Virus record (IMG/VR): IMGVR_UViG_3300047281_000098
Location: 41,265-105,264 of that record
DNA: 64,000 nucleotides
Source: a virus
Direction: 5' to 3' (one strand)
The notes beneath the pieces were generated by a model. It did no database searches and was not told the DNA's origin. It worked only from the letters and a program-made list of their open reading frames with translations. Below are positions 10,160-59,675 of this stretch, in pieces (position 1 is the first letter of the stretch; every line of letters begins with the position of its first letter). A program made the translations under genes and the position numbers.

Positions 10160-10414
10160 ATGAAGATTAATCCTAAACTTAAACCAGACGAGTTAGCTCT
10201 TTTATCAGTAGATTCTGCTAGGAGATATTTTCTATTAAACGTTAATACCACTAAACTAGCACCGGACGAAGATTCTATACAGCATGAGTTTGCACTGTGG
10301 TTAGAAACAGAATACTCCTGTAAAATGTGGCGCCCGTATAAAGGAGCAACAAGACGGTTGAAATTTAATGATATGGCTAAATTAGTTTGGTTTAAACTCA
10401 AATATGAAATTTAA
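10160..10414 (+). CDS. hypothetical, outlying LRW-like C-terminus
   Basis: ends LKFNDMAKLVWFKLKYEI*. Confidence 0.65.
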   Translation: MKINPKLKPDELALLSVDSARRYFLLNVNTTKLAPDEDSIQHEFALWLETEYSCKMWRPYKGATRRLKFNDMAKLVWFKLKYEI

Positions 10415-11003
10415 CGGTGACGTTGACATTGATCTAGGAAACAGGGACTTACTGTTGGAACACATTAAGCATATTCCTGCGGCTATGCGTAATATAACAC
10501 CTATAAGAAAGCACTCCACTGGAATTCATATCACTGATATTCCATATGATCCTATCAATAATATCGCGTCAATTGACTATGCCGCTGCTGAATCGCGCGG
10601 GTATTTTAAGCTGGACTTGCTGAATGTTCATGTATATGCTAATGTACGTGATGAGTCACATTTAGTAGAATTAATGCGCGAGCCAGATTGGAATCTACTG
10701 AATGACAGAGAATTTGTAAGTACGCTTATACATTTAGGTAATCATTATCAAAGTATACAGCGTATGATTGAGCCTATCAATAGTATTCCCAGACTGGCTA
10801 TGTTTCTGGCAATGATCAGACCTGCAAAAAAGCATCTGATAGGCTTGCCATGGAGTGAGGTTGCGAAGACTATTTGGGAGAAAGATAGTGACGGCGGGTA
10901 TAGCTTTAAGAGAAGTCACGCAGTTGCGTATTCACAGTTAGTCACTGTACATATGAATCTGTTACAGGAAATGCCTGTTACGAAATTCTTTTCACAAGAG
11001 TAA
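10404..11003 (+). CDS. dnaE: DNA polymerase III alpha (C-family) catalytic fragment, second half of split DnaE
   Basis: DVDID, KHSTGIHI, GYFKLDLL, PINS..LAMFLAMIRP, GYSFKRSHAVAY in DnaE order. Confidence 0.82.
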   Translation: MKFNGDVDIDLGNRDLLLEHIKHIPAAMRNITPIRKHSTGIHITDIPYDPINNIASIDYAAAESRGYFKLDLLNVHVYANVRDESHLVELMREPDWNLLNDREFVSTLIHLGNHYQSIQRMIEPINSIPRLAMFLAMIRPAKKHLIGLPWSEVAKTIWEKDSDGGYSFKRSHAVAYSQLVTVHMNLLQEMPVTKFFSQE

Positions 11004-11358
11004 TGGATCTTCTTTTTGATCGACGCTTGCTTAGGTCTGACATACTACATACGGGGCCGTGTAGTATTACTAAGCTTTTGTTATTGAATGTTCTGATATA
11101 TGGTCTGAAGATTGCCCAATCTTCTTTTAAAAACAAGTTGATAGGGATAAGTCTGTTGCTTTCCCACCACCATATATCACCTAATTCTAGAAATTTCTCT
11201 TTAACTGCTAAGTCCTGTATAGCACCATAATCATATATAGTGGTAACGACATCATCACGATTCTGAACAATTCCCACGTAGTCTTGGCTGGCGTATGAAC
11301 AGATTGTGATGAAAGGGTGATTCTCGCTTAGGCGTTTAAAGAATTCGTTAGGTATCAT
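10978..11358 (-). CDS. hypothetical protein
   Basis: 126 aa ORF preceded on - strand by GATAAATA late-type motif. Confidence 0.7.
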   Translation of the reverse strand: MIPNEFFKRLSENHPFITICSYASQDYVGIVQNRDDVVTTIYDYGAIQDLAVKEKFLELGDIWWWESNRLIPINLFLKEDWAIFRPYIRTFNNKSLVILHGPVCSMSDLSKRRSKRRSITLVKRIS

Positions 11359-11463
11359 TGATAATGTGTATTAAGTTTATTTATCTGCGGAAAGAATTCG
11401 GGTATTATTCCTGAATGACTAAATATAAGATATGCTAAATATAACATTAGAAGCGAATAACAA

Positions 11464-12237
11464 ATGTATGCAACCTCAGTTTTCTCCTATATCCCTCGGC
11501 AAATTGTCGTTGTCTTATCCGGCAACTCGGTAAGGAAATATATGCCCGTTTATGCTAAACCACTCACATTACACAAAGGTGTCGACAACCAGCTGCAGTT
11601 TCAGTTCCTTAATCAAGAGCAGAAACCTGTTAATATCACTGGTGCGGAGATCACATGCCGTATTTTAAACTATCAAGGTAATACTGTGCTTCTTCAGAAA
11701 GCACTGACCCTACAATTAGCAGCCACAGGTATTGCTGCTCTTCAACTAAACGCAGCAGACATTGAGGGTATTGATCCACAAAAATGCTATTACACATTAG
11801 AAATTCCAGTTGGTAGTTTCAATTACCCAGTATTCGTGGATCAGAACGCAGGTGGTCGCGGTGATCTAAACATCGTTAATTCTATTCTACCAAGCTTTGT
11901 GCCGTCACAAAGTGTGTCTATTCCTACTGGGCAATTGTTCCCGAATAACAATTCAAGCGCAAATGCCAATTCAAACGCACTAACATATTTTACCAGTGTT
12001 TGGTCAACTGATGATAATCCAATTTCAACTATTCAAGCAGAATACACTGGGTTTTATGGTAACGTTCAGATTCAAGGTTCCACAATAGTAGACGGTGATT
12101 GGTATAACATTGGAAACACGTATGTCTATTCAAACGTATCCGATACCATTGGATATTCCTTTACTGGATATCATCCATACATCCAAGTACAATTCATCAG
12201 TAATATTGGTGATGTTACTAACATTTTAAGAAGATAG
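11464..12237 (+). CDS. putative virion structural protein (beta-rich)
   Basis: TAAATA motifs upstream; Asn/Thr/Gly/Val-rich. Confidence 0.55.
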   Translation: MYATSVFSYIPRQIVVVLSGNSVRKYMPVYAKPLTLHKGVDNQLQFQFLNQEQKPVNITGAEITCRILNYQGNTVLLQKALTLQLAATGIAALQLNAADIEGIDPQKCYYTLEIPVGSFNYPVFVDQNAGGRGDLNIVNSILPSFVPSQSVSIPTGQLFPNNNSSANANSNALTYFTSVWSTDDNPISTIQAEYTGFYGNVQIQGSTIVDGDWYNIGNTYVYSNVSDTIGYSFTGYHPYIQVQFISNIGDVTNILRR

Positions 12238-12250
12238 ATCACCGTATCTA

Positions 12251-12279
12251 TTGTATTTTCGTGTTCACTATGTTATAAT
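12251..12279 (+). promoter_or_regulatory. sigma70-type promoter of primase-helicase
   Basis: TTGTAT-17 nt-TATAAT with TG extension. Confidence 0.7.
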
Positions 12280-12281
12280 AG

Positions 12282-13268
12282 ATGAACATGTTTGATATTC
12301 TATCTATATTACCTGGCAAGAAAAAAACAACGAGTAGCGGCTGGACAAGTTTCAACGCTGTTTGTTGTAGCCATCTTGGACACAAGTCCGATCGCCGTAT
12401 GCGCGGCGGTATTAAGTTTGACGGTCAATCCAAATGGACCATGAACTGTTTCAATTGTAGATACTCATGTAATTTTGTATTAGGCAAATCAATAAGCCCA
12501 AAAACTAGACAGCTTCTTATTTGGTGCGGTATTGACAGTGAACAGATTCAACGATGGAGTCTGGAGAGTTTACAACATAAAGACTTACTGGACTTTTCAG
12601 GTGACGTTCTACCTCGTAAAAAAGTAAAATTCAAAGAGCAGGAATTGCCAACTGATGCTGAATTAATAAACGTAAACAACCCTGATCATAAGATATACAC
12701 TGACTATTTGATCAAACGACATATTGATCCTAATGAATATCCGTTTATGGTAACTCCGCATATTCAGGGTAGAAATAACAATCGCATAATTGTACCGTAT
12801 ACTTATAAAAATAAGATCGTTGGACATACTAGTAGATACCTAGATAATAAATTACCAAAGTATATCAATTCTCAACAGCACGGATATGTATTCGGATTTG
12901 ACTTTCAAAAACCTGAATGGAATATATGTCTGGTAGTTGAGGGTATATTTGATGCGCTGAGTTTGAATGCGTGCGCTACAATGCATAACACAATCAATGA
13001 CGATCAAGCACAGGTATTAGCACAGTTAAACAAACAGATAATAGTAGTACCGGATAGAGACCGTGCCGGATTAGAAATATGTAGTCGTGCGTTAGAGTTA
13101 GGATATAGTATTAGCTTACCAAATTGGCACGTTGATGTAAAGGATGTTAACGATGCGATAATCCGTTACGGAAAGCTTCCAACGCTAATGAGTATATTAC
13201 AAGCAGCCACGATGTCTAAAATTAAAATCGAAATGCAAAGGAAAAAAATTGAAAAAACAAGAATCTAA
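12282..13268 (+). CDS. DNA primase (T4 gp61/DnaG-like)
   Basis: N-terminal Zn ligands (CC...CFNC), TOPRIM VVEGIFDA, VPDRD, KDVND. Confidence 0.88.
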   Translation: MNMFDILSILPGKKKTTSSGWTSFNAVCCSHLGHKSDRRMRGGIKFDGQSKWTMNCFNCRYSCNFVLGKSISPKTRQLLIWCGIDSEQIQRWSLESLQHKDLLDFSGDVLPRKKVKFKEQELPTDAELINVNNPDHKIYTDYLIKRHIDPNEYPFMVTPHIQGRNNNRIIVPYTYKNKIVGHTSRYLDNKLPKYINSQQHGYVFGFDFQKPEWNICLVVEGIFDALSLNACATMHNTINDDQAQVLAQLNKQIIVVPDRDRAGLEICSRALELGYSISLPNWHVDVKDVNDAIIRYGKLPTLMSILQAATMSKIKIEMQRKKIEKTRI

Positions 13269-14688
13269 GAAACAACTTGAATATACTCCTGATGTTCAGA
13301 AATTATTTTTGCGAATGATGATAACTAACTCGGAGTTATACACCCGTGTTATGAACATTATGAACAGCGAGAATTTTGACAGATCGCTGCGCCCAGTGGC
13401 AGAAATGTTTAAAGAACATACTGACAAGTATAAGATTTTACCTGATGCCACTCAGATTAAAGCAACAACCGGGATTGATATTGAACCGGTGCCTGAATTA
13501 AGTGACGGACATTTTGAATGGTTCTTTGATGAGTTTGAAGCATTCACTAAGCGACAGGAACTTGAGCGTGCGATTCTTAAAGCAGCAGACTTGCTTGAGA
13601 AGGGTGATTTTTCTCCTGTGGAAAAGCTAATCAAGGACGCAGTTCAAATTAGCCTACAGAAAGACATGGGGACTGACTACTTTGCTGACCCCGCACATCG
13701 TATCAATAAGTATTTTAACTCAGGTGGTCAAGTATCAACTGGCTGGCCACAGATGGATCGTATTTTGTACGGTGGCATGAGTCGCGGCGAACTTAATATC
13801 TTTGCAGGTGGCTCTGGTTCTGGTAAGTCACTGGTCATGATGAATTTGGCATTGAATTGGCTACAAGTTGGATTGAGCGGAGTTTATATTACACTAGAAC
13901 TTTCAGAAGAACTAACCTCACTGCGTACTGATGCGATGTTAACCAGTATGGGAACTAAAGATATTCGTAAGGATATTGACAATACTGCTTTAAAGGTAGC
14001 ATTGATAGGGAAGAAGTCTGGTAAGTATCGTGTCAAGGGACTACCTGCGCAAAGTAATGTCAATGATATTCGTGCTTATCTGAAAGAAGTTCAAATTCAA
14101 ACTGGTATCAAGATCGACTTTGTTATGGTCGATTATCTTGACTTGGTTATGCCAGTATCTGTTAAAGTTAACCCCAACGACCAGTTTATTAAAGACAAAT
14201 ATGTAGCTGAAGAATTGCGAAATTTAAGCAAAGAATTAGGCGTGTTGTTAGTTACAGCATCACAGTTGAATCGTTCAGCAGTTGATGAAATTGAGTTTGA
14301 TCATAGTCACATTGCAGGTGGTATCTCTAAGATTAATACAGCGGATAACGTGTTCGGTATCTTCACAAGCCGTAGTATGCGTGAACGTGGTAAGTATCAG
14401 ATTCAATGTATGAAGTCGCGTAGTTCAACAGGTGTTGGTATGAAAGTTGATTTGGAATACAACATTGAAACGATGCGTATTACTGACGATGACCCTGAGG
14501 GATATGCGGATCAGCAAGCAAAATATACTCCTAAACCTAGTCCTAATGATTTAATGACTAGGATGAAGCCTACTCCATACACTGATATTTCTCAACTATC
14601 AGATAATTCAGAACCACTGACCAAGAAAATAGTGGCAAATGTTCAGGGTAGTAAACTAAATGCGCTACTGAATAGTTTAAAGAAATAA
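13249..14688 (+). CDS. replicative helicase (DnaB/T4 gp41-like)
   Basis: STGW, GGSGSGKS Walker A, VMVDYLDL, TASQLNR, KSR. Confidence 0.92.
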   Translation: MKKQESKKQLEYTPDVQKLFLRMMITNSELYTRVMNIMNSENFDRSLRPVAEMFKEHTDKYKILPDATQIKATTGIDIEPVPELSDGHFEWFFDEFEAFTKRQELERAILKAADLLEKGDFSPVEKLIKDAVQISLQKDMGTDYFADPAHRINKYFNSGGQVSTGWPQMDRILYGGMSRGELNIFAGGSGSGKSLVMMNLALNWLQVGLSGVYITLELSEELTSLRTDAMLTSMGTKDIRKDIDNTALKVALIGKKSGKYRVKGLPAQSNVNDIRAYLKEVQIQTGIKIDFVMVDYLDLVMPVSVKVNPNDQFIKDKYVAEELRNLSKELGVLLVTASQLNRSAVDEIEFDHSHIAGGISKINTADNVFGIFTSRSMRERGKYQIQCMKSRSSTGVGMKVDLEYNIETMRITDDDPEGYADQQAKYTPKPSPNDLMTRMKPTPYTDISQLSDNSEPLTKKIVANVQGSKLNALLNSLKK

Positions 14689-14711
14689 ACAAAGCAAAGC
14701 ATAAATACTTG

Positions 14712-14960
14712 ATGCAAACAAATACTCGCAGCCTTCTGGAAGAATTAGAGTCTATTAGTCATAATCGTGATACAACTCACATTATAGAAAGTAGAGCTAA
14801 TAATATTATTACCAGTGCTATTAATTTATTAGAATTAATGAATAAGCACTATACGGAAGAGCAATGTCAAATCCTGGAAAGAAAACTACTAGGTGCTATA
14901 AAAAGCAGAGACCAAAGTAGATTTGCAAAATCTTTAAGGAAAAATAGTGAAACTGAATGA
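14712..14960 (+). CDS. hypothetical late protein
   Basis: TAAATA at 14702-07 just upstream. Confidence 0.65.
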   Translation: MQTNTRSLLEELESISHNRDTTHIIESRANNIITSAINLLELMNKHYTEEQCQILERKLLGAIKSRDQSRFAKSLRKNSETE

Positions 14961-16203
14961 ACTAAAACACCCTAGCGCACTAAATGAAGACCTTAGTGAT
15001 TGGATAGGAACTCACGGAGCAGCGGCTGTAAAAGGCGGAATAGATAAATTTAAAGGTAATGCTGAAGGTAGCTTGAGTACTGTTGACCGAATGGCAAGAG
15101 ATGGATTCATTAAAGATTTCATCGGGCGCGCATCTGCTAACATCAAAAGTGCAATTGCTAGCGGAATAGTTATCCCCCCAGTAGCAGGTCAATCTGCGCC
15201 TGTGGCAGGTCAAACAGCAACAGCAGCCCCAGAGACTCCTGAACAAAAACGTATTAGATTACAAAAGACGCAACAGCAAACGCTTGATAAGTCCAGTGGT
15301 CAATTCAGTAAGCTGCCAAACCCTGTCTCGGCACAAGCCGAGACTCCTGAACAAAAACGTATTAGATTACAAAAGACGCAACAGCAATCACAAGCTGGTG
15401 CCAGTGGACAATTCAGTAAGTTACCGGCAAATCAAGTAGCAACGCAATCCGCTAATATCAGGACAGCAAAACAATTAGCCGCAGCTCCACAAACAACTGT
15501 AAAGCCAGTTGCTGTACCCGTACAAACCCCCGGTGAGAAAAGAGCAGCAAGACTGGCCACTGCTACAGCCGCATTAAGGGAATCATCAACATATAGCAAA
15601 TTAAATGTTGTGTTTGAATCAATGATGGAAGCAGGCAACGCCACTAGCAGTGTTAGCAGCTACTTACAAAAAATGTTTACTCAGTACATGCACGGAGTTG
15701 ATACATCATCACAATCTGCGAAAATCAAAGAATTGAGTGATGCTGTTGAACAATCATATTCAATGACAGACGGTGGAAAAGCAGCTATTGCTCCTCTTAC
15801 ACAACTAGCAAACTTAGGATTTGCGCTATCGCATAGCAACAAAGGCAGAGATGCAGCCGCTGCCCCGGCCACTGCGGCAGAACAGCCTGGTTTTTTGAGT
15901 GGACTAACACAGGGTGCTAGTTCAGCACAGGGTATAGCACCCGTAGCTGACGGCACCGCATATGCTAAAGCAAAAGCAGCAGTGACTGTTCTTGATAAAA
16001 AAGGTAAACAGCGAATAGGATCGTTAATACAGAAATCTCTTGCGACTCCTAATGCGGCATTGGCGCCAGCAGCAGACCGGGCTAGTGCTGAAGCTGCTAT
16101 GCGTGCTAGACGGGCACCGGTTGTACCGCAGTCTCCCGCGCAGCGTCGAGGCGGTATGCAGGTCGCCGAACAAAAAATAGTGAAAAAATGGGGCGAAGAA
16201 TAA
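14947..16203 (+). CDS. putative internal head protein, Ala/Gln-rich with internal duplication
   Basis: MKLNEL..ALNE N-terminus; ETPEQKRIRLQKTQQQ twice. Confidence 0.6.
   Translation: MKLNELKHPSALNEDLSDWIGTHGAAAVKGGIDKFKGNAEGSLSTVDRMARDGFIKDFIGRASANIKSAIASGIVIPPVAGQSAPVAGQTATAAPETPEQKRIRLQKTQQQTLDKSSGQFSKLPNPVSAQAETPEQKRIRLQKTQQQSQAGASGQFSKLPANQVATQSANIRTAKQLAAAPQTTVKPVAVPVQTPGEKRAARLATATAALRESSTYSKLNVVFESMMEAGNATSSVSSYLQKMFTQYMHGVDTSSQSAKIKELSDAVEQSYSMTDGGKAAIAPLTQLANLGFALSHSNKGRDAAAAPATAAEQPGFLSGLTQGASSAQGIAPVADGTAYAKAKAAVTVLDKKGKQRIGSLIQKSLATPNAALAPAADRASAEAAMRARRAPVVPQSPAQRRGGMQVAEQKIVKKWGEE
15232..15387 (+). repeat. exact 48 bp direct repeat, 108 bp period
   Basis: gagactcctgaacaaaaacgtattagattacaaaagacgcaacagcaa at 15232 and 15340. 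Confidence 0.9.
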
Positions 16204-16204
16204 C

Positions 16205-17356: not shown

Positions 17357-17449
17357 ATAATCCACAATTTTTTGTTCCTGGCATAAATACATTTAGAGCA
17401 ACACATTATTCATAGTGAATAATAGCTCACATACTAAAGGAAATATATT

Positions 17450-17929: not shown

Positions 17930-17945
17930 TCAATTACTGATTAGC

Positions 17946-17977
17946 AAAAGCCCTAAGATTTTTCTTGGGGCTTTTTT
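17946..17977 (+). terminator. rho-independent terminator
   Basis: aaaagccctaaga/tcttggggc stem + T6. Confidence 0.8.
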
Positions 17978-17994
17978 ACGGCTCTAAATAGAGT

Positions 17995-18952: not shown

Positions 18953-18966
18953 TTTTGGAACACACT

Positions 18967-19671: not shown

Positions 19672-19673
19672 CA

Positions 19674-34780: not shown

Positions 34781-37700
34781 ATGGCATTAACATCACCAGG
34801 CGTAGAAGTAACAATCACAGACCAGAGCCAATACTTACCGGCTCCGGGTGGATCAGTTCCACTTGTTATATTAGCTACTGCACAAAACAAAGCAGACGCA
34901 TCTGGTACAGGAGTTGCAGCTGCAACTACTGCTGCTAATGCAGGGAAATTATATCAGATAACAAGTCAACGCGATTTGGTAAATCTATATGGTTCACCGT
35001 TCTTCTACTCAACAACTAACGGAACACCTATTCAAGGATATGAATTAAATGAATACGGTCTATTAGCTGCTTACTCAACATTAGGTGTTACTAATCGTTG
35101 TTATGTATTACGTGCTGATATTGACTTGGCTAGTTTAGTTGGTCAAACAGGTCGTCCAGTTGGATTTCCAGAAAATAATACTTACTGGTTAGATACTACT
35201 AGCAGCACTTGGGGCATATATGTATTCAATCAAACTACTGGTAAATTTTCGTTACAAACTCCTATTGTCATTACTAACCCTGATGATTTAACAGGTGGGG
35301 TACCTAATTCAACTATAGGAAATATTGGTAATTATGCGGTTAACGCATTGGAAACTGCATATTCATTCGAGTCCGATGCATCAAATAGAGAATTCTTCTA
35401 TAAATCTTCTTTCAATGTTTGGGTACCATTAGGCGGTACGGCATGGAAGAAAGATGTGCCTACAGTATCAGGAACAACATCAAATCCTGTACTAAGTCCG
35501 GGCACATTTACTATCAATTTAAATGGAATATATATTACTACAATAACAGTTCCAGTATTTCCTAACAATAATGTATATGGTGTAGCAGCAGCAATAAATA
35601 ATTTAAATTGGTTTCAATTAACTGCTAGTGTACGAAATAATAAATTGTGTATTTTTTCATCACAAAATAGTAATTTGTCCGGGGCAATGACTCTTTCTCA
35701 AACAGGTACTGTGTTAGATGAACTTGGTATAGTAGCAAAAACATATTATCAAGCAGGTGTTGAATTTGGTACTGCAGCGCAAATGCCATTATGGACTTCT
35801 AGTCAAGCCCAACCGCACCCAACTGGGTCTGTATGGATAAAGGTTGGTCAATCTGGTAACGGTTTAGCACCAGTTGTTGCTAATTTTAATGCAGTAACTA
35901 ATATTTGGCAAAATAAAAACGTGTCATTGGCAACCTCAGATGCTCAGGTTAATTCCAATTTAGATGCTACTGGTGGTAAATTAATTCCTGCCGGATCTAT
36001 CTATGCTCAATATGATCCTAGTTACGTAACAGCACCTCTATATCTATGGGAAAGAATCGCTACTGGGCCTACTGTTGTGACAGGAAGTGTATCAAATCCT
36101 GTACTTAACAGCGGTCCGTACGTGATGACTGTACAAACATCAGTGCCAGGATCTCCGACTTTATCATCAGTGTATTCTGTAACAGTACCTGACAACACAG
36201 ACGCTAGTGGATTTGTAACTGCTTGGACTGCGACAAATATATTATATACTACTGCCTCAGTAACTACTGACGGTGCTATTCAGATAACTCATACTGATGG
36301 TGGATCAATTAATCTTTCTGATCTAGTAGCTGGTGTATCTAACGGATTGTTATCCGCAGTTGGATTCAATATCAATAGTACTGCTGGATGTAAATACGGG
36401 CCAACTGTATCAATTAATTTCTCAGACGTTCCTCAGCTATCAACAACTGGTGTGGGAACAAATGGTCTGTTTAATATTATATCTGAATATTCAGCATATG
36501 TTGTATCATTTGGTGGAGTTGGCTCTACTGGTGGTAGTGGATATGCAGTAGGTGATAATATTACTATTTCAGGCGCAGTGCTTGGTGGTACTACACCTAC
36601 AAATGATCTAGTTATCAAAGTAACTAGTGTAAGTATTACAAATGCTATAACTTCAGTGATGTATGTATCAGGATCTACTCCTAATAATTACGCAACAGAA
36701 TTGAGCAATTGGAGATCATTTACTTATACAGCAAATGAAGGTTCACCAGTAGCTGCGCCTGTCAATGATACAAATTGGTTCTTCAGTGTTGTTGATCAAG
36801 TTGATATTATGGTACAAAAAGGCGGTGTGTGGATTGGTTACGGTCAAACGTCATACGATAGTTCAGGTTTCCCTGCTGCTACTGGTGTTAATGCCACTGA
36901 TCCTAACGGACCAATCATTGCTGCTACTGCTCCTACTACCCAAAGTGATGGTACAGCATTGGTATACGGTGATTTATGGATGAGTACAAGTGACTTGGAA
37001 CTATATCCTCTACTATCTCGTTGGGAAGCAATCGATTCTTTGACCAATGGTTGGGTTCTTTTAGACAATTCAGATCAAGTAAGTTCATCTGGTGTTGTAT
37101 TTGCGGATGCTCGTTGGGCAACTTCAGGCACAGTAAGTCCTACTGATGATCCTATCGCAACTATCCCTACATTGCTACAAAGCAATTATCTAGATTTAGA
37201 TGCTCCTACTGCTACGCTATATCCACAAGGTATGTTGTTGTTTAACACACGCCGCTCAGGTTATAACGTTAAGCAATACAAAGCTAATTACTTCAATTCA
37301 ACTGACTTCGCTGGTGATACATTACCAGTTCAAAAAGCAGCTTGGGTCACGATAAGTGGTAATCAAGCAAATGGTTCTCCGTATATGGGTCGTAAAGCTC
37401 AACGTGCAGTAGTTGTTCAAGCAATGAATGCTGTTGTTGCTACTAACATGGCAATACGTGATGAAGACAATGCGTTTAACTTAATGGCAGCTCCTAATTA
37501 TCCTGAACTACAGCCTAACATGGTTGTGTTGAATAATGATCGTGGTGATACTGGATACATATTAGGTGACACCCCAATGCGTTTACCTGACGATGCTACT
37601 GCTATTCAAGCATGGGCTACTAACGCAGCAGGTGCTACATCAACCGGCGAAGATGGTTGCGTAACTCGTGATACTTATTTAGGATTGTTCTACCCAAGTG

Positions 37701-38329
37701 GTATCACTAACGATTTATCAGGTAATTTAGTTGCAGTTCCAGCTTCACACATGATGCTAAGAACATTCATCCGTAGTGATAATGTTTCTTATCCTTGGTT
37801 AGCAGCAGCAGGTACTCGTCGTGGTACTATTGATAATGCGACTAACATTGGTTATCTAGATGGTCAAACAGGTGAATTCCAGACAATTAAAACTCGTATA
37901 GGTATTCGTGACGTTCTATATACTAACTTCATTAACCCAATGGTGTTCTTCACTGGAGTTGGACTATTGAATTACGGTAATAAAACAAGCTTTAATTCAT
38001 CAAGCGCATTAGACAGAGTTAACGTTGCTCGTTTAGTAGCTTACATACGTAGACAACTAACATTAGCTGCTCGTCCATTCGTGTTCGAACCAAATGATGC
38101 GTTGACTCGTCAACAAATCGCTGGTGTTGTTCAAACATTGATGGTAGACTTGGTTGCTAAACGTGGTCTATATGATTATCTAGTAGTATGTGATGATTCA
38201 AATAATACTCCTGCTAGAATTGATCGCAATGAGCTTTGGATTGACGTTGCTATTGAGCCCGTCAAGGCAGCTGAATTCATCTACATCCCTGTTCGTATAT
38301 TGAACACAGGTGAATTGTCAGGCAAATAA
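34781..38329 (+). CDS. tail sheath protein (gp18-like) with large insertions
   Basis: MALTSPGVEV, PW.A.AG..RG, RVNVARL, FVFEPND, CDDSNNTP..IDRNEL, P.KAAEFIYI. Confidence 0.95.
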   Translation: MALTSPGVEVTITDQSQYLPAPGGSVPLVILATAQNKADASGTGVAAATTAANAGKLYQITSQRDLVNLYGSPFFYSTTNGTPIQGYELNEYGLLAAYSTLGVTNRCYVLRADIDLASLVGQTGRPVGFPENNTYWLDTTSSTWGIYVFNQTTGKFSLQTPIVITNPDDLTGGVPNSTIGNIGNYAVNALETAYSFESDASNREFFYKSSFNVWVPLGGTAWKKDVPTVSGTTSNPVLSPGTFTINLNGIYITTITVPVFPNNNVYGVAAAINNLNWFQLTASVRNNKLCIFSSQNSNLSGAMTLSQTGTVLDELGIVAKTYYQAGVEFGTAAQMPLWTSSQAQPHPTGSVWIKVGQSGNGLAPVVANFNAVTNIWQNKNVSLATSDAQVNSNLDATGGKLIPAGSIYAQYDPSYVTAPLYLWERIATGPTVVTGSVSNPVLNSGPYVMTVQTSVPGSPTLSSVYSVTVPDNTDASGFVTAWTATNILYTTASVTTDGAIQITHTDGGSINLSDLVAGVSNGLLSAVGFNINSTAGCKYGPTVSINFSDVPQLSTTGVGTNGLFNIISEYSAYVVSFGGVGSTGGSGYAVGDNITISGAVLGGTTPTNDLVIKVTSVSITNAITSVMYVSGSTPNNYATELSNWRSFTYTANEGSPVAAPVNDTNWFFSVVDQVDIMVQKGGVWIGYGQTSYDSSGFPAATGVNATDPNGPIIAATAPTTQSDGTALVYGDLWMSTSDLELYPLLSRWEAIDSLTNGWVLLDNSDQVSSSGVVFADARWATSGTVSPTDDPIATIPTLLQSNYLDLDAPTATLYPQGMLLFNTRRSGYNVKQYKANYFNSTDFAGDTLPVQKAAWVTISGNQANGSPYMGRKAQRAVVVQAMNAVVATNMAIRDEDNAFNLMAAPNYPELQPNMVVLNNDRGDTGYILGDTPMRLPDDATAIQAWATNAAGATSTGEDGCVTRDTYLGLFYPSGITNDLSGNLVAVPASHMMLRTFIRSDNVSYPWLAAAGTRRGTIDNATNIGYLDGQTGEFQTIKTRIGIRDVLYTNFINPMVFFTGVGLLNYGNKTSFNSSSALDRVNVARLVAYIRRQLTLAARPFVFEPNDALTRQQIAGVVQTLMVDLVAKRGLYDYLVVCDDSNNTPARIDRNELWIDVAIEPVKAAEFIYIPVRILNTGELSGK

Positions 38330-50800: not shown

Positions 50801-53800
50801 TTGGAACACTAGGTTCATTGACAGTAACTGCTAATATAAGTGCTGGCAATGTTAACTCTAAATTCTTTGGGGCGCTTAACGGAACTGTTGGAGCAACAAC
50901 AGCTAACACAGGTAACTTCACAACAGTTGCTGGTACTACAATAACAGGAACAGGAAATGTCACCGGCGCAAACTTAGTTACGGGCGGCGTGCTAACAGTA
51001 ACCGGAAATGCTAACGTTGGTAATCTAGGCACCACAACTGCTATTATATCTACTGCCAACATAACAACTATAAACGCAGCAACTATCAATGCGAATACTG
51101 TAATAAATGTAACTTCGTCAACTGAAGCAACAAGCACAACAACTGGTTCTATTAAGACTGCCGGCGGCATTGGTGTTGTAGGGAACGCTGTGATCGGCAA
51201 CACATTGTATGTAGGCAATGGTGCAGCGGCAACAACATTTATCAACCCTGTTATCATTGCTAAAGACACTGGAGCTACTTATGTTCAAGCAGCACTGATC
51301 AATAATTCGAACACCGGATCATCTGATTGGGTAGCATACGGGGATACAGGTACTGATTCTCAATCTTTTGTGGATATAGGATTTACTAGCAGCGCATTCA
51401 ATGACCCTGCGTATACTATCACAGGTACAAATGATGGATACGTATTCGCTCAAGGCGACACTGCTAATGTCAATGGTGGAAATTTAGTATTCGCAACTGG
51501 CTCACAAGGTACAACAAAAGACTTAGTATTCGCAACCGGTGGCTTCTTAGTCGCTAATGAGAAAATGCGTTTCATACATGCAACTGGTCAATTCTATATT
51601 GAACCTACTACTGCTGCTTCAAGTACGATAACAGGCGCATTACGTGTAGCAGGCGGAGCAGGTATTGGTGGTAACGCATACGTTGGTGGACTTTTAGCAG
51701 TCACTGGCAATATCTCCGGTGCTAACATCAATGGTACTTTCTATGGCGCAGCAACTGGACTAACTTCAATCCCGGGCGCGAATGTAACTGGTACTGTACC
51801 ACTTGCTGCAAGTGCTACTTCAGCTACCACAGCAGGAACAGTAACAACTGCTGCTCAACCAAATATCACTTCAACTGGTACTTTAACTGCTCTAGCAGTA
51901 ACCGGCAATATATCAGGTGCTAACGTAACCGGTACTCATTATGGCGCAGCTACTGGACTAACAGCTATCCCAGGTGCTAACGTAACTGGTACTGTTCCGC
52001 TTGCTAATGTTGCATCATTCGATTCAATCACTACAGTGGCAACCGGCGTCGTATATGCCCAGTTCTCTAATACTGTTTCAGGCACTGCGATTGCATATGC
52101 TAACTCTGTTTATACTGCTAATATAGCCAATGGATCATTTACAGCAACAAGATTCGTTGGTGCGTTAACTGGTCTTGCTTCAAGTGCAACAGTAGCTGCT
52201 TCTGCAAATGCAGTGGCAGGCGCCAACGTAAGTGGACAAGTAGCAAACGCATTAGTTGCGGGTACTGTTTATACTGCTGCCCAACCAAATATCACAAGTA
52301 CAGGAACTTTGACTGCTTTAGCAGTAACAGGTAACATCTCAGGTGCTAACATCAATGGTACTTTCTATGGCGCAGCAACTGGACTAACTTCAATCCCGGG
52401 TGCGAATGTCTCTGGTACTGTACCACTTGCTACTACAGCAGGTACAGTAACAACTGCTGCTCAACCAAATATCACATCAGTTGGTACTTTAACTTCGTTA
52501 GTAGTAACTGGTAATGTCACATCAGGTAATGCTAATTTAGGTAATTTACTAATTGCTAACTTCATTCAAGGGACATTAACAACTGCTGCTCAACCAAATA
52601 TCACATCAGTTGGTACTTTAACTTCGTTAGTAGTAACTGGTAACATCGACGGGGCTAACATAACAGGTACTCATTATGGGGCAGCTACTGGATTAACTTC
52701 AATCCCGGGTGCTAATGTATCTGGTACAGTAGCCAATGCGACATACGCAGTAAGTTCAGGTACAGCAGGTACAGTAACAACTGCCGCACAATCAAATATT
52801 ACTTCAGTTGGAACTCTGACGAGTTTAAGTGTTAATGGTGGCATAACTGCAATTAATATCACTGCTAATACAGGTGTATTTACGGGTAACGGCTCTAGTT
52901 TATCAGCGATAGCAGGTGGAAATGTAACTGGTCAAGTTGCTAATGCGCTAGTAGCGGGTACAGTTTATACTGCGGCACAACCAAATATTACATCAGTTGG
53001 AACTCTAACTTCATTAAGTGTATCAGGTAATGTTAATGGTGTTCGTGCTACTTTCACAGCGACGGCGGCTCCAACTACTGATATGGTTTCCATAACTAAT
53101 GCAGGCCAAGCAGTAGCAACAGTAGGTGTAAGTGGATTACAAGTGACTTATGTGGGCGGTGCTGCAGCAATTGAAGCATCGGCTAGTAGAATTGATCTGA
53201 CTCCGGGTGGAACTACTGGTGGTATTTGGAATGGACATAGAATTGTAGCAACAGCATCAACTACTGGGGTCGCAGTGAATGCGATTAAAGTTGATACTAA
53301 AGCAGCAGGATTAGGCACAAGTTCAGTTATCTATTCCGGTACTGGGTGGGATAGTATTGTCAACTACAATGGCACCACTGTTATAAATGGAACAGGACAA
53401 GTAGTTGCTGGTCAAATAACTGGACAAGTAGCAAACGCATTGGTGGCAAGTACAGTTTATACTGCTGCGCAACCAAATATTACTTCAGTTGGAACTTTAA
53501 CTGCTCTAGCAGTAACCGGCAATATATCAGGTGCTAACATAACAGGTACTCATTATGGCGCAGCAACTGGATTAACTTCAATCCCGGGTGCGAATGTAAC
53601 TGGTACTGTTGCTAATGCGACATACGCAGTAAGTGCAGGTACAGCAGGTAGTGCTACTACAGCAGGTACAGTAACAACTGCTGCGCAACCAAATATTACT
53701 TCTATAGGCACGTTGACTTCATTGAGTTCATCAGGTAACATCTCAGGTGCTAATGTAGCAGCTACCACATATACTATTCATGGAGTAACTACTGGGATTT

Positions 53801-54087: not shown

Positions 54088-54099
54088 TAGAAAGATAAA

Positions 54100-54720
54100 A
54101 TGATAACATTAGAACTACTAGCGGCAATATGCCCTAATACTAAAAGAACAGTTTTAGAAAAATATGTTGATTCTTTAAATGAAGTTGCTGAATATTATGA
54201 TATGACTAAGAATCCAGCAAGACTTGCTAGTTTTTTAGCACAAGTAGCACACGAAAGTGGAGGATTTAACGCAGTGAAAGAAGGATTAAATTACTCTGCT
54301 CCCGGTTTACGGGCTACTTTTGGTAAATATTTTCCAACAAACGAAATGGCCATGAGTTACGCAAGAAAACCAGAGTCAATTGCTAATAGAGTATATGCGA
54401 ATCGCATGGGCAACGGGTCAGAAGAATCAGGTGATGGCTATAAATTTTGTGGTCGAGGCCTAATTCAACTAACTGGGCGCGATAACTACACCAAGTTTGC
54501 TAACGATCTAAGTATGAGTATTGAAGAAACTGTTGACTATTTACAAACTCCTGAGGGAGCATGTGCTAGCGCCGGGTGGTTTTGGGATAATAATAACTTA
54601 AATTCATATTGTGATAGAAATGATTTTACGGGTTTAACTAAACGAATCAACGGCGGCATTAATGGTCTAGCAGATAGAAAACATCATTTTGACATAGCGT
54701 TAAATATGTTACAAGGATAA
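54100..54720 (+). CDS. glycoside hydrolase family 19 endolysin
   Basis: FLAQ..HES, YANRMGN, GRGLIQLTGRDNY, INGG.NGL.DR. Confidence 0.92.
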   Translation: MITLELLAAICPNTKRTVLEKYVDSLNEVAEYYDMTKNPARLASFLAQVAHESGGFNAVKEGLNYSAPGLRATFGKYFPTNEMAMSYARKPESIANRVYANRMGNGSEESGDGYKFCGRGLIQLTGRDNYTKFANDLSMSIEETVDYLQTPEGACASAGWFWDNNNLNSYCDRNDFTGLTKRINGGINGLADRKHHFDIALNMLQG

Positions 54721-54722
54721 AC

Positions 54723-57206
54723 ATGTCACAACCAATTTGGAACACAGCAGCAGGAACATTAGGATCATATCCAACACGTATACCATTAGAGGTTCAATTA
54801 TCTGCCTCACCTCAGTTTCCTGCTACAAGTTTGATTTATAACTTGCTAAGTGGTAGCTTACCGCCGGGGCTTATAATTTCAGTTACTGGGCTTATATATG
54901 GTATTCCCTTGCTAGTAACGACGGATACATCATCTACATTCACTATACGAGTAACTGATGATTTAAATAATATAAGAGATAGAACATTCTCAATGACTAT
55001 CTCAGGTTCAGCTATCCCTAAATTTACGACTCCAACTGGCAGCTTATTAAATACTCAGGATAGTATTTGGACTGACCTACATATTAACTATTCGAATATA
55101 GATGTTACTAATCAAGTAATAGTAAGACTGAAGGAAGGGATACTTCCTCCAGGTCTCGAAATTAATACTGCGGGTATAATACGAGGTTATCCATTGCCAC
55201 CTACTGCTAGTGTAACTTTATCTGAAGTAACAACACTCTCTACCGTAACAACTTCTACACAAAATATAATAGTATGTTCGAGTACTACTGGATTTTCAGT
55301 GGGAAGACCAGTTATATTCACTGGCACAGTATTTGGTGGTATAGTGTCGGGCACTACTTACTATATTAAATCAATAGAAAGTGCTATATCCTTTACTATA
55401 TCTAGTACTCAATATGGAAATATTTTCTCAGTAGTAGATGGTACTGGATCGATGACAACTACACTGACCACTACCTCAGTTGGTATGCCAACAATCAGAA
55501 CATATTCATTTACTTTAGAATTAGTAAGTGATTTAGGTGGTGATACCGCTGCATACTCTATAACAGTTATAAATCAAAATACACCTATTAGTCAAGGTGG
55601 CCCGGGTAAATTAGCAAATTCTCGCTCACCTACACTATTGAATACCAGACCACTTACGTTTAATCTAGTAAATTCTGACCCATATTATGGCTATTACTTA
55701 TTACCACCGGTAACTCCTACACAGATAGCACAGATTGGAACTGTACAGTCCGGTGACTATTTCGCATTTAATATCATAGGACATGATTTTGATAACAATG
55801 TAATACAATATACTTATTCTAATCTCCCACTAGGATTAATAGGTAATAGCACAACTGGATGGATAACTGGCACACCAGTATTAACATCGACTGGTATTAG
55901 TAGCTATAGTTTTACTGTAAGTGCTTATAAAGTTAATTCCCCTACTATAACAACTGGTAATTTTAAATTCGGCTTAAATGTTAGTAATCAAATTAATGGT
56001 GTAATAACTTGGATTACTCCGGCTAATTTAGGAATTATATTCAACGGTACTATTAGTACATTAAGCGTGTTGGCTGATTCTGATGTGGATTTGTCATATC
56101 GTATTACATCAGGCAATCTTCCTACTAATTTAGAATTATTATCAAATGGTGAGATTATAGGCAGAGTATCAAATCAGCCCACTAGTGAATTCTTAGTTCA
56201 AGGTGACACAACCTTATTCACATTTACTGTTCAAGCATACTCTCTTGCTTATTCAATAGTCCAGTCAAGTAAGACATTTGTGATGACTGTCTTACAAGAA
56301 TATCAACAGCCAACTGATATTCTATATATTAAAGCAGCACCTAGTATTTCAGATAGAAATCTAATTGACTCACTGTTGACTAATGAAACAATCATACCTA
56401 ATGATGATATTTATAGAATAGATGATATCTACTTTGGCAAAGCCTCATCAGTTATATATGAACACGCATACGGGATATACGCAAGTGATATAACTTCTTA
56501 CCTAGTAGCAGTTACTAAAAATCACTATTGGAGAAATATCGTATTGGGTGAATTGAAGACCGCAATTGCTAAAAATGCCGCTGGTGATGTTATTTATGAA
56601 GTAGTTTATAGTGAAGTAATAGATAATTTAGTAAACCCAGATGGTATCAGTATTAATAGTCGCATATATTGGGATAATTTAATCGATCTAGGATTAGGAC
56701 CGTGGTATACAAGTATCACTGACATATACACTAGCTATGACTTTGAAGTAAACGGATTACCGACATACTATACAAGTTTGACCCCGGGATATGCCAGAGT
56801 TTTATATCCAAATAGCTTATATAACATGAGAAATCGTGTATCTGAGGTAATTGGGCAAGAGTATGATAGTAGATTATTACCACAGTGGATGACTAGTCAG
56901 CAGCCAAACGGGAGTACACTGGGTTATACTCAGGCCTGGGTTATTTGTTATACTAAACCGGGTCGAGCAGATAAGATTAAATCAAACATAGAAACTATGT
57001 GGCCTAATACATTGAATCAAATCAATGTTGGAATTGATAGATTTACAGTAGATAAGAGCGCAACGTTTGACTACGACAAACATATGCAGCCTGCTGCTTG
57101 GACAAATTTACCAAGCTCAGTACCTACTCCTAATCCACTAGATAGTAAAGACTTTTACGTATTATTTCCTAGAAAAACAATTTTACCCGATGAAACCCAA
57201 TACTAA
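54723..57206 (+). CDS. virion protein with tandem Ig-like (He_PIG-type) domains, probable baseplate component
   Basis: repeated SG.LP.GL....G.I.G.P motifs. Confidence 0.7.
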   Translation: MSQPIWNTAAGTLGSYPTRIPLEVQLSASPQFPATSLIYNLLSGSLPPGLIISVTGLIYGIPLLVTTDTSSTFTIRVTDDLNNIRDRTFSMTISGSAIPKFTTPTGSLLNTQDSIWTDLHINYSNIDVTNQVIVRLKEGILPPGLEINTAGIIRGYPLPPTASVTLSEVTTLSTVTTSTQNIIVCSSTTGFSVGRPVIFTGTVFGGIVSGTTYYIKSIESAISFTISSTQYGNIFSVVDGTGSMTTTLTTTSVGMPTIRTYSFTLELVSDLGGDTAAYSITVINQNTPISQGGPGKLANSRSPTLLNTRPLTFNLVNSDPYYGYYLLPPVTPTQIAQIGTVQSGDYFAFNIIGHDFDNNVIQYTYSNLPLGLIGNSTTGWITGTPVLTSTGISSYSFTVSAYKVNSPTITTGNFKFGLNVSNQINGVITWITPANLGIIFNGTISTLSVLADSDVDLSYRITSGNLPTNLELLSNGEIIGRVSNQPTSEFLVQGDTTLFTFTVQAYSLAYSIVQSSKTFVMTVLQEYQQPTDILYIKAAPSISDRNLIDSLLTNETIIPNDDIYRIDDIYFGKASSVIYEHAYGIYASDITSYLVAVTKNHYWRNIVLGELKTAIAKNAAGDVIYEVVYSEVIDNLVNPDGISINSRIYWDNLIDLGLGPWYTSITDIYTSYDFEVNGLPTYYTSLTPGYARVLYPNSLYNMRNRVSEVIGQEYDSRLLPQWMTSQQPNGSTLGYTQAWVICYTKPGRADKIKSNIETMWPNTLNQINVGIDRFTVDKSATFDYDKHMQPAAWTNLPSSVPTPNPLDSKDFYVLFPRKTILPDETQY

Positions 57207-57214
57207 ATAGATAT

Positions 57215-58243
57215 ATGAGTACAATAAACACATCAGGCGTCAACGTAAACTATCCGGTCCCGGGCATTAATAATAACAGCCAGGGATTTCGAGACAACTT
57301 CGCCTCTATCAAAACAAACTTAAATGCCGCAGGAACTGAGATAACGGACTTGCAAAATAAGGTTATAGTTAAGTCTGCGTTAGCTAATTCTACTATTAAT
57401 AATGACATGGCTAACACGCTAATGTCAAACACATTAACTCGTGGATTTCGGGCAAGTACATATAATCTTGGTAACGCATTATCAGGTACTGTATTAGTGG
57501 ACGCCTCATTGGGTGATGTACAATACGGGACTATTGCAGGTAACGTTACTTTACAATTCGCAGGGTGGGCACCCGCCGGGACACAAAGTAATGTTCAATT
57601 ACAGTTAGCAGTATCTAACGCAAGTGCTGTAGTATCATTCCCATCGTCAATATCAAGTAATGCTTGTTTTGGTGTTACTACATTAGAAAACTATGCTAAT
57701 ATAGCAAGTATAGCTACTGTTAGTGTTCCTTATTCAGTATGTCAGTTGGATTATCGTCTTAGTACAGTAGATTGCGGCGGCAATGTTTCAATCGAACCAT
57801 ACAACAGACCTAGAAAAGCTACTGAAATACGCACAAGAACTCCAGCACCAACTGGATTTCAAGGTGATGTTGCTGGTACAGTAACAGTCGATACTAATTA
57901 TATGTATGTTTGTACTGGTACATACGATTCAGGTAATGGTAATACTATATCCAAAACTGCCACAGCAACCGCAACTGGTACTAATCTTGTTACATTGAAT
58001 AATATAACGAGCCTAGTAGTTAATGCTCCTATTATCTTTACTGGGACTACTTTTGGTGGAATCGTAGCTGGCACAGTATACTATATAAAATCTATTGCGT
58101 CACCTAATATTACGCTAAGTGATACACGTACTGCGGGCACTGCTGGATCAGTATTTCCGCTTAGCACTTCATCTGGTTCAGTGACAGCAGACAGTTTTAA
58201 CGGTTCAGTAATTTGGAAGAGAATCGCGCTTACTGCCTGGTAA
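57215..58243 (+). CDS. tail/baseplate structural protein
   Basis: NSQGFRDNF..IK N-terminus, shared beta module, C-terminal WKRIALTAW. Confidence 0.65.
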   Translation: MSTINTSGVNVNYPVPGINNNSQGFRDNFASIKTNLNAAGTEITDLQNKVIVKSALANSTINNDMANTLMSNTLTRGFRASTYNLGNALSGTVLVDASLGDVQYGTIAGNVTLQFAGWAPAGTQSNVQLQLAVSNASAVVSFPSSISSNACFGVTTLENYANIASIATVSVPYSVCQLDYRLSTVDCGGNVSIEPYNRPRKATEIRTRTPAPTGFQGDVAGTVTVDTNYMYVCTGTYDSGNGNTISKTATATATGTNLVTLNNITSLVVNAPIIFTGTTFGGIVAGTVYYIKSIASPNITLSDTRTAGTAGSVFPLSTSSGSVTADSFNGSVIWKRIALTAW

Positions 58244-58288
58244 TACTTAGAAAAATATCAAGGGGTTGTTTCTGTAATAAATATTTAC

Positions 58289-58522
58289 ATGGAACACCCC
58301 TTTATCCACGACTTATCTGATAAGTCGATTGAAGATTTACAAACTACTATTTCTGACCTGACAGGTAAGCTTAATTTTGCTTATAGAATGGGTAATCAAC
58401 CAATGGTAAATCAACTACGAATGGCTATAACCAGTTATCAAGTTGAATCTAGTAAGCAAATGGATGCTTTACTCGCTAAACAAAATATTAACTCTCAAAT
58501 TAATATCAAAAAAGAAACTTAA
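58289..58522 (+). CDS. small coiled-coil hypothetical protein
   Basis: 77 aa; TAAATA 5 nt upstream. Confidence 0.65.
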   Translation: MEHPFIHDLSDKSIEDLQTTISDLTGKLNFAYRMGNQPMVNQLRMAITSYQVESSKQMDALLAKQNINSQINIKKET

Positions 58523-58523
58523 T

Positions 58524-59120
58524 ATGACTACTAGAATACTCCGTGAATTTGCCTTTCAAGCAGGTGTTTATTTCGAAGATGCGTTTTCAATGAATATGTA
58601 TAGCTTGTCTATATGTATGGATGTTGAAACTGACAGTATCAGAGAACAGAATATCGCAATGGAACGTATTAAATACTTTCTAGCGGAATCATTAGAAAGC
58701 AGTATCTTTGTAAACGAAGCTGAAACCAAGCTAATTGAAAAGTATACCTCATGTGGATTTAAAGTTTGTACTTTGCCCAATGACCCGTATGATCAAATAA
58801 TTACTATAATGTTGTTAGTAAAGCTTAATGCCATTGCTGAAGGTAGATTAATAGTCACTGATATCACATTAGGTTCACAGTTAAGTGATGAGGTTAATTT
58901 TATGTATGATTTGGATAGTCCCCTGGGTCCGTTTGAAGAACTTGGCTGGTGGGTTGATCCTAATCCGATTATCTCTGATATAGTAAAGACCAACAAGAAA
59001 GATAAGATTGTTAAATTGTTCAATCCAAATACATCAGCTTGGGCAGAAATTGATCTATTATGGAAAGAAGTTGGATCTGCTATTAGCTCACCAGAAATAA
59101 TCTTCACCACTGAAAAATAA
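58524..59120 (+). CDS. hypothetical, possible degenerate QueD/T-fold
   Basis: start moved to ATG 58524; REFAFQAG..., IKYFL...LESSIF. Confidence 0.6.
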   Translation: MTTRILREFAFQAGVYFEDAFSMNMYSLSICMDVETDSIREQNIAMERIKYFLAESLESSIFVNEAETKLIEKYTSCGFKVCTLPNDPYDQIITIMLLVKLNAIAEGRLIVTDITLGSQLSDEVNFMYDLDSPLGPFEELGWWVDPNPIISDIVKTNKKDKIVKLFNPNTSAWAEIDLLWKEVGSAISSPEIIFTTEK

Positions 59121-59133
59121 CTTACCAAACAAG

Positions 59134-59162
59134 TTGACTTTTCATTCAACTTATGTTAAACT
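59134..59162 (+). promoter_or_regulatory. sigma70-type promoter (leaderless) for DnaE N-fragment
   Basis: TTGACT-17 nt-TAAACT with TG extension; ATG 6 nt downstream. Confidence 0.65.
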
Positions 59163-59168
59163 ATGTAA

Positions 59169-59675
59169 ATGAAAACTGATATTTACGGCCAACAAGTCTA
59201 TAGTGAAGCAGACCTATGTGATTTCTTCCTACAAGACCCTAGCCGCAATTTGAATCAAGTTTTGGTGGAGAAATCTATCCAGTTTGATGAGATTCTATCA
59301 GTCGTTAACATTCCTAACTTCAAAGCGTATACGCAATCACGCTTAACGCCAGCTCAGTTTGACGAAGAAAAACAATCACACTGGTATATGCCAGATGAGT
59401 ACGCACAATTTGATATAGCAAAATGGGTACTGGATCAGTGTAATGACGAAGCCGAGTTACAACGAGCTGGTGACGAACTATTAAAGTTTCATGATCGTGA
59501 TATGTTTTCTCTGCTACAGTATCTCAAATACTTAGTAGATACAATGCGACAGTATAACATAGTTTGGGGTGTTGGTAGGGGAAGTAGTGTAGCAAGTTTT
59601 GTGTTATTTTTAATAGGGATACACAAGATTAATTCATTATATTACGATCTTTCTATTGATGAGTTTTTAAAATAG
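59169..59675 (+). CDS. dnaE: DNA polymerase III alpha fragment, first half of split DnaE
   Basis: R...EL......YL..LVD......GVGRGSSVASFVLFLIGIHKINSLYYDLSIDEFLK*. Confidence 0.82.
   Translation: MKTDIYGQQVYSEADLCDFFLQDPSRNLNQVLVEKSIQFDEILSVVNIPNFKAYTQSRLTPAQFDEEKQSHWYMPDEYAQFDIAKWVLDQCNDEAELQRAGDELLKFHDRDMFSLLQYLKYLVDTMRQYNIVWGVGRGSSVASFVLFLIGIHKINSLYYDLSIDEFLK

Follow-up and report, generated by a model that had tools for sequence, protein, structure and literature searches.

A split minimal DNA polymerase III alpha in an uncultured jumbo phage, orthologous to that of group 2.2 phages

Introduction

In cyanobacteria, the alpha subunit of DNA polymerase III (Pol III alpha, DnaE) is encoded by two distant dnaE genes, whose products carry the halves of a natural split intein at the break and are spliced into a full-length protein. 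Jumbo phages are known to divide Pol III alpha as well, and here we analyse one such pair of genes (hereafter N-half and C-half) in a stretch of 64,000 nucleotides, called the window throughout, which makes up the last 64 kb, at the 3' end, of a linear virus record of 105 kb (IMG/VR record IMGVR_UViG_3300047281_000098). As in cyanobacteria, the two genes are distant from each other; unlike in cyanobacteria, there are no intein residues at the break, and the enzyme is minimal. It is near certain that both halves belong to the published family of split minimal Pol III alpha, and the pair is thus the orthologue, in an uncultured phage, of a system already published in 2021 and not a new kind of system.

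Iyer, Anantharaman, Krishnan, Burroughs and Aravind described this split minimal enzyme in 2021 (Viruses 13:63, PMC7824862) for group 2.2 jumbo phages; they suggested a role in the synthesis of one strand or in repair, and reported that a family-B polymerase (PolB) accompanies the split enzyme. Known examples are PA5oct gp196 and gp264, Atu_ph07 gp316 and gp74, RaK2 ORF162 with its C-half partner, and GAP32_282. Among these, gp316 had already been annotated as Pol III alpha in the paper on Atu_ph07, and the main text of the PA5oct omics paper makes no mention of these genes. The system consists of two genes located tens of kb apart, one for an N-terminal, NTP-binding piece and one for a C-terminal piece that binds Mg2+ and the template, with neither a PHP domain nor any other Pol III domain, with primase-helicase and clamp-loader genes as neighbours and with PolB in the complete relatives. 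The pair in the window agrees with this in its two distant genes, its domain content and its neighbours, with PolB present in its complete relatives, and differs in two respects: in its clade a DEDD exonuclease gene stands directly upstream of the C-half, and in the window itself an extra open reading frame (ORF) of 84 residues lies between the exonuclease and the C-half.

The comparison with bacterial Pol III alpha (structures 2hqa and 5fkw from E. coli, 2hpi, 3e0d and 4iqj from Taq, and 5lew and 7pu7 from M. tuberculosis) shows the same Pol-beta-like palm, with the GRGS motif, the DxD motif and a third Asp following a Lys, as well as the same finger motifs, RPG and KSH..AY. The bacterial enzyme is a single chain of about 1160 residues, in contrast to the 367 residues in two chains of the phage, and the canonical DnaE/PolC architecture is not present in the latter, which lacks the PHP domain, the thumb, the beta-clamp motif, the HhH element, the OB fold and the tau-binding tail. 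A few contiguous metagenomic proteins (P0106, P0125, P0007 and P0009) hold the same core and motifs in about 336-376 residues, but in a single chain.

We consider it quite probable that the two ORFs encode the two subunits of a split minimal DNA polymerase III alpha, of the kind typical of group 2.2 (T4-related) jumbo myophages, held together non-covalently and auxiliary to PolB. Three observations are new additions to what was known of this system: a conserved promoter of the N-half, a clade-specific coupling of the exonuclease to the C-half and the existence of rare contiguous forms.

Results and Discussion

Two complementary pieces of one catalytic fold

Both ORFs lie exactly where an initial annotation of the window, made from the sequence alone, had placed them (Table 1), on one strand and with 48,166 bp between them. 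The N-half ends in ...GVGRGSSVASFVLFLIGIHKINSLYYDLSIDEFLK* and the C-half starts with MKFNGDVDIDLG. The first 72 residues of the N-half are a phage-specific extension, with no detectable counterpart in Pol III alpha, and residues 73-168 are the palm equivalent of residues 277-393 of E. coli alpha, with GVGRGSS at 134-140. The C-half corresponds to the palm plus a shortened fingers domain, without the thumb, and carries the motifs DxDxD (D6, D8 and D10), K69-L-D71, RP139-140 and SH171-172..Y176.

Using E. coli DnaE (read from NC_000913) for anchoring, GRGS136 and FL167 of the N-half fall on GRGS361 and FL392, and D6/D8/D10, K69-L-D71, RP139 and SH172 of the C-half fall on D401/D403/D405, K553-F-D555, RP639 and SH760, respectively. 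The distance from GRGS to FL is 31 residues in the phage and in E. coli alike, and FL and the first Asp, on either side of the break, are 7 residues apart, versus 9 in E. coli; the stop codon of the N-half comes one residue past FL, and the C-half starts five residues ahead of DxDxD. These anchors and spacings place the break in the Pol-beta-like palm, within the loop that leads from the G-S helix to the DxD strand. The E. coli anchors therefore agree with the initial annotation, according to which the break falls between FL and DxD and the two ORFs are complementary; they also confirm that the residues it had picked as catalytic, within 'DVD' and 'KLD', are the right ones, given that D6, D8 and D71 of the C-half are the equivalents of the E. 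coli triad D401, D403 and D555.

Relative to E. coli alpha, about 89 residues are absent between DxD and the third Asp (the thumb), a further 88 or so are absent between RP and SH (the fingers), and nothing in the C-half, which maps to E. coli residues 398-790, corresponds to the region beyond residue ~790. There is no Pfam match to a PHP domain in either half. The proposal that the pair lacks PHP, has a shortened thumb and fingers, and ends without a clamp-binding, HhH or OB tail was thus well founded. A clamp-binding tail on the C-half was considered as a candidate and rejected, the C-terminal tails being short and unconserved among the relatives.

The break point also bears on the possibility that the halves are covalently joined, either after translation (by split inteins) or earlier, as RNA or DNA, and work as a one-chain unit. 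Cyanobacterial DnaE is a precedent for such joining, and the PolB of the related phage MIJ3 does carry an intein. Against it, the FL-D spacing (7 versus 9), the N-half ending in FLK and the C-half beginning with MKFNG-DxD leave no intein residues over at the break, in line with the initial view that no split-intein termini are present; the termini are equally tight in the 160 loci of the relatives, and one secondary fusion (P0007, see below) links intact termini with a linker of just five residues. We regard covalent joining as very improbable.

Family and structure matches

The N-half matches the Pfam family PF07733 (DNA_pol3_alpha) with 33.5 bits, compared to a gathering score of 23.9 (E 4.5e-8), in a match limited to profile positions 20-94 of 260. 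Among the PHROG families, the N-half matches PHROG 11127 (phrog_11127, 171 positions, E 1.2e-38) and the C-half matches PHROG 11778 (phrog_11778, 197 positions, E 5.1e-55); both families bear the name 'DNA polymerase', and their lengths are as small as those of the two halves. For the C-half there is no match in Pfam and no sequence match among the solved structures, where the best result for the N-half is a profile match to Taq 409-454 with E 0.11.

The AlphaFold model of the C-half has a pLDDT of 92, and the eight best Foldseek matches are all Pol III alpha. In VIA-align superpositions, 195 of the 199 residues of the model are placed on Taq alpha 459-847 (3e0d_A) with Z 9.4 and a root-mean-square deviation of 3.3, and 193 residues are placed on E. 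coli alpha 398-790 with Z 7.2, compared to Z 3.4 for the best unrelated chain. For the N-half, the model has a pLDDT of 83, and Foldseek finds nothing significant for it alone (Pol III alpha appears at ranks 20 and 35). Its residues 73-168 align with E. coli alpha 277-393 and Taq 298-455 (structures 4iqj and 5fkv, Z 4.4), in a structural register which is consistent with the Pfam match and with the profile match to Taq 409-454.

Predicted complex

When the N-half and the C-half were modelled together, with both alignments, the complex reached an ipSAE of 0.90 in three runs, in comparison with 0.00 for the best of three controls; the ipSAE mark is reached by 58 of 80 solved complexes and by 2 of 110 mismatched pairs. 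The runs agree in at least 98% of the contacts (about 170), with a partner pLDDT of at least 89. The predicted interface places N-half residues 125-142 (including W133/G134, in the strand before GRGS) on C-half residues 1-12 (the DxDxD strand), with strand 132-136 of the N-half paired to the DxD strand and with W133/G134 in contact with D10/L11, so that the GS strand runs alongside the DxD strand. With such an interface, the catalytic sheet would span both chains. Additionally, the phage-specific segments 1-11, 28-31 and 61-74 of the N-half are predicted to pack on C-half residues 43-51 and 65-68, and this N-terminal region may, judging from the model, compensate for the missing covalent link. 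Formation of a heterodimer by the halves is likely.

Distribution, conservation and selection

The record which contains the window is about 30% complete according to CheckV and is therefore a fragment of a jumbo phage genome of about 350 kb; the source is a jumbo myophage of the Rak2/PA5oct/Atu_ph07 type. The DNA between the halves contains myovirus tail genes, such as that for a tail sheath of 1182 residues at 34781-38329.

In tblastn searches against cultured phages, the N-half is found in 95 records and the C-half in 96, with identical host tallies. The matches are all in jumbo phages, with 37-46% identity (the range which also holds for PA5oct, Atu_ph07, RaK2 and GAP32), and the carriers include Rak2-like/121Q-like coliphages and Klebsiella phages, PA5oct-like Pseudomonas phages, Atu_ph07, Phosso, SCTP-2 and XacN1. 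A fused query (P0007) matches 187 places in 96 of the cultured records, none of which covers 80% of the query, and nearly every cultured record therefore has both halves separately.

Similar results were obtained for uncultured viruses, where hundreds of metagenomic contigs show the arrangement in two genes. The pair is present on 8 of the 10 large IMG/VR contigs; these 8 include the two complete genomes, which have terminal repeats and lengths of 329 and 361 kb, and the other two contigs, where one half is missing, are 35-40% complete. In the nearer clade the halves lie on one strand and 35-52 kb apart; the distance is about 45 kb, counted across the ends, in one complete genome (G006), and about 119 kb in G002 (the other complete genome) and G003. 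We kept 80 IMG/VR loci per half (138 and 110 confirmed), and in these 160 loci the two halves are never less than 6 kb apart. The N-half ORFs have 166-177 residues, and in almost all of the 80 loci the stop codon comes right after the equivalent of FLK; the C-half ORFs have 187-219 residues and start within a few residues of DxDxD. The co-occurrence of the halves, which had been proposed as a check of the pairing, is thus observed both in the cultured records and in the large contigs.

In the non-redundant alignments (48 N-half and 45 C-half sequences, with 54-75% identity to the window), GVGRGSS, including GRGS136-139, is invariant in the N-half, and D6, D8, D10, K69, D71, R139, P140, H172 and Y176 are invariant in the C-half. 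The ratio of nonsynonymous to synonymous substitution rates (dN/dS, Nei-Gojobori, pairs with 0.05<dS<1.5) has a median of 0.19 over 82 pairs of N-half sequences and of 0.15 over 164 pairs of C-half sequences, with a maximum of 0.35. Both halves are under purifying selection.

G002 and G006, the two complete relatives, each have an ORF of about 900 residues matching DNA_pol_B, and in neither of these did we find a full-length dnaE or any PF07733 match besides the N-half. The presence of a family-B polymerase elsewhere in the genome, a question which the initial annotation had raised, is answered for the split enzyme by the 2021 paper of Iyer et al.; in the 105-kb record itself, at about 30% completeness, no PolB was found.

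These data allow weighing the reading of the pair as decaying, functionless remnants of a full-length dnaE. The two halves together do amount to about one third of a normal DnaE, as remnants might. However, the lengths and the break point are kept in 160 loci, the arrangement persists in phages at 37-46% identity, the catalytic residues are invariant, the dN/dS medians are 0.15-0.19 and no full-length DnaE is present in the complete relatives. The conservation of the break point, the selection and the invariant residues exclude decay, to which we give a negligible probability. The co-occurrence, the conserved break, the selection, the invariant residues and the predicted heterodimer all support, instead, the proposal of a heterodimeric minimal C-family polymerase.

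Contiguous forms

A phmmer search with the 376-residue query P0007 against 1.84 billion representatives gave 576 matches at E<=1e-10. Among the best 150 of these, the only single chains spanning both halves are P0009, P0106 and P0125, and the remainder have the size of a single half. Altogether, the contiguous metagenomic forms are P0007, P0009, P0159 and P0160 (375-376 residues), P0106 (353 residues), and P0125 and P0161 (336 residues). The same P0007 query detected no contiguous form in the 96 records of cultured phages. No relatives of P0007, P0106 or P0125 were found among viral contigs, and for P0125 none were found among metagenome contigs either. A search with the C-half profile in proteins of 385-2000 residues returned nothing, which is weak evidence; a fusion of about 367 residues falls outside that length range.

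The contiguous forms are of two sorts. P0007 and P0009 keep the N-terminal extension and fuse intact termini through a 5-residue linker (…KEFIK-DSVEG-KYNIADLDID…). A tree of the C-domain joins them with the split P0011 and P0012 as their sister group (SH-aLRT 94), within an otherwise split clade of 86 rows (SH-aLRT 99), and this nesting inside the split forms points to a secondary re-fusion. On the other hand, P0106 and P0125 are placed near the base of the tree, begin without the N-terminal extension of 70 residues and show a junction of bacterial type (FLPPDRPDKLPDVD); they are compatible with an unsplit ancestor, with the root of the tree not established.

Three other long ORFs (P0001, P0002 and P0003) were candidates for fusions of the N-half with the C-half and were rejected, because in them the N-half is joined to a downstream or upstream neighbour instead. 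These ORFs come from metagenomic contigs. In P0001 and P0002 (400 and 383 residues) the N-half and the downstream 130-residue gene form a single called ORF (…EEFLK-Q-DKNM…), and in P0003 (360 residues) the N-half does so with the upstream 225-residue gene. The joined ORFs could reflect stop-codon loss, recoding or a gene-calling artefact.

Gene neighbourhoods

The features of the window discussed here are listed in Table 1. In the window, as in PA5oct, Atu_ph07 and GAP32, the C-half is followed in order by a small reverse-strand gene, a structural protein, primase and DnaB helicase. The N-half is followed in order by a gene of about 130 residues, a GroES/gp31-like gene, a small gene and a gp44-type clamp loader, both in the window and in PA5oct, Atu_ph07 and RaK2. 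Each half belongs to its own replication cluster, and given that these gene orders are shared by very distant phages, the split must be older than their divergence.

Table 1. Coordinates, strand and supporting matches of the features discussed, in window positions.
Feature	Position	Strand	Remarks
N-half of split minimal Pol III alpha	59169..59675	+	168 residues; PF07733, PHROG 11127, invariant columns
C-half of split minimal Pol III alpha	10404..11003	+	199 residues; PHROG 11778, invariant columns, AF2 (AlphaFold) model
Sigma70-like promoter TTGACT-17-TAAACT	59134..59162	+	-10 ends 6 nt ahead of the N-half ATG
DEDD 3'-5' exonuclease (Rv2179c-like)	9598..10155	+	Pfam PF16473, E 1e-32
84-residue small ORF	10160..10414	+	between exonuclease and C-half; overlaps C-half start by 11 nt
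DnaG-like primase	12282-13268	+	Pfam Toprim, PHROG 47
DnaB-like helicase	13249-14688	+	PHROG 19, E 5e-69
RFC/gp44-like clamp loader	60781..61707	+	PHROG 168, E 8e-72; three genes downstream of N-half
Small gene beside N-half	59721-60113		PHROG 14844
Small gene beside C-half	10978-11358	-	PHROG 11637

The two small genes with PHROG 14844 and PHROG 11637 matches are kept as immediate neighbours of the halves from the window to PA5oct, Atu_ph07, RaK2 and GAP32. Both are candidates for further subunits.

Expression of the two genes

No Shine-Dalgarno sequence precedes the ATG of the N-half, and the hexamers of a sigma70-like promoter are located directly ahead of it (Table 1). Upstream of the N-half, at least 10 of the 12 sigma70 consensus positions are matched in 42 of 58 distinct relative sequences, 40 of which share one geometry, with precisely 6 nt between the end of the -10 hexamer and the ATG; as a control, the sequences upstream of the C-half contain such a match in 1 of 62. 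This geometry predicts a leaderless mRNA, transcribed by the host RNA polymerase. Generic promoter and terminator scans around both genes gave chance level, and the N-half promoter is seen by comparison only.

The C-half, on its side, follows the DEDD exonuclease gene. The exonuclease is upstream of the C-half in 41 of the 80 loci and abuts it in 27, with ATGA/GTGA stop-start overlaps in two of them (L003 and L002), an arrangement from which translational coupling of the exonuclease to the C-half can be deduced in the clade of the window. As for a more general link, the exonuclease is absent (at E<=1e-3) from PA5oct, Atu_ph07 and GAP32, in G002 it is 47 kb from the C-half, and in G003 it is likewise absent or distant; for these reasons it was rejected as an obligate partner, and it is at most a possible, clade-specific one. 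The association of the exonuclease with the polymerase, which the initial annotation had brought up, consequently stands within the phage's own clade and fails as a general partnership.

In the window, the ORF of 84 residues is carried on a 245-bp insertion flanked by TGAAAT and located precisely at the exonuclease/C-half stop-start junction. According to blastn, the insertion is absent from L002 (97.6% DNA identity) and L003 (82%). The end of this ORF (...WFKLKYEI) resembles an array of small ORFs with F-x-L-R-W located upstream.

Possible function

In the mechanism we propose, the N-half would provide the first strand and the G-S nucleotide-binding turn of a Pol-beta-like nucleotidyltransferase palm, and the C-half would provide the DxD strand, the third catalytic Asp and the shortened fingers. 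Without inteins, the halves would bind each other non-covalently and share a single active site, formed over a beta-sheet to which both subunits contribute, with the first 72 residues of the N-half as an extra interface. A leaderless mRNA from a sigma70-type promoter of its own would serve for the expression of the N-half, and the C-half would depend on coupling to the genes upstream of it. The pair is likely to be catalytically active, since its active-site residues are invariant. The activity we favour, and hold to be probable, is templated DNA synthesis; it would be of low processivity, since the thumb, the clamp-binding motif and the OB/HhH tail are all lacking, and the split enzyme would be auxiliary to the family-B replicase of the phage.

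A repurposed nucleotidyltransferase has to be weighed against this activity; it could be a terminal transferase or tailing enzyme, start synthesis without a primer, or make nucleotide signals or DNA modifications. All the elements with which Pol III alpha holds the primer-template (thumb, clamp-binding, OB and HhH) are missing from the pair, Pol-beta-fold enzymes are often non-templated, and the complete relatives already have a family-B replicase. Nevertheless, what has been retained is specifically the palm and fingers of Pol III alpha, with invariant RP and KSH..AY motifs which are not present in other Pol-beta-fold enzymes, and both genes are located in replication clusters, with primase/helicase and clamp loader. 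On balance, we find a repurposed enzyme improbable.

Regarding the specific role of a templated polymerase, the conserved linkage to primase-helicase and clamp-loader genes means that it could be lagging-strand primer extension or repair synthesis. Primer extension, hand-off or repair beside PolB, as suggested by synteny and by the missing processivity elements, is put forward tentatively. More doubtful still is the full scenario, in which an active minimal C-family polymerase would carry out primer extension or hand-off between the primase-helicase and PolB, the leaderless N-half would set the supply of subunits, and the coupled DEDD exonuclease would be an epsilon-like proofreader in the clade of the window. 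The presence of DnaE beside PolC in Firmicutes offers the analogy for this hand-off.

Several points weigh against a split minimal Pol III alpha as we propose it. The N-half model alone has a weak likeness to Pol III alpha. The score of the predicted complex may be owed to likeness with solved Pol III alpha structures; since the halves of a split fold can score in this way, the prediction speaks for compatibility of the halves and not for binding. The accompanying replicase is deduced from the relatives, the partial record of this phage being without PolB. In the literature we found no biochemical work on any member of the family. To our knowledge, a C-family polymerase without a thumb and a clamp-binding tail is unprecedented, and with these elements missing and with tails that are short and unconserved, templated synthesis is not assured.

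Conclusions

The split minimal enzyme is an evolutionary curiosity, a bacterial-type polymerase core shrunk to roughly one third of the usual length, divided within its catalytic fold and accompanied by an archaeo-eukaryotic-type PolB. The exact break point, the predicted inter-subunit beta-sheet, the leaderless promoter, the exonuclease coupling and the contiguous or re-fused forms are handles for experiments in the culturable PA5oct/Rak2-like phages. Should the pair indeed prove to be an active hand-off polymerase, no smaller replicative-type polymerase core would be known, and nature would offer in it an example of one active site formed by two chains.

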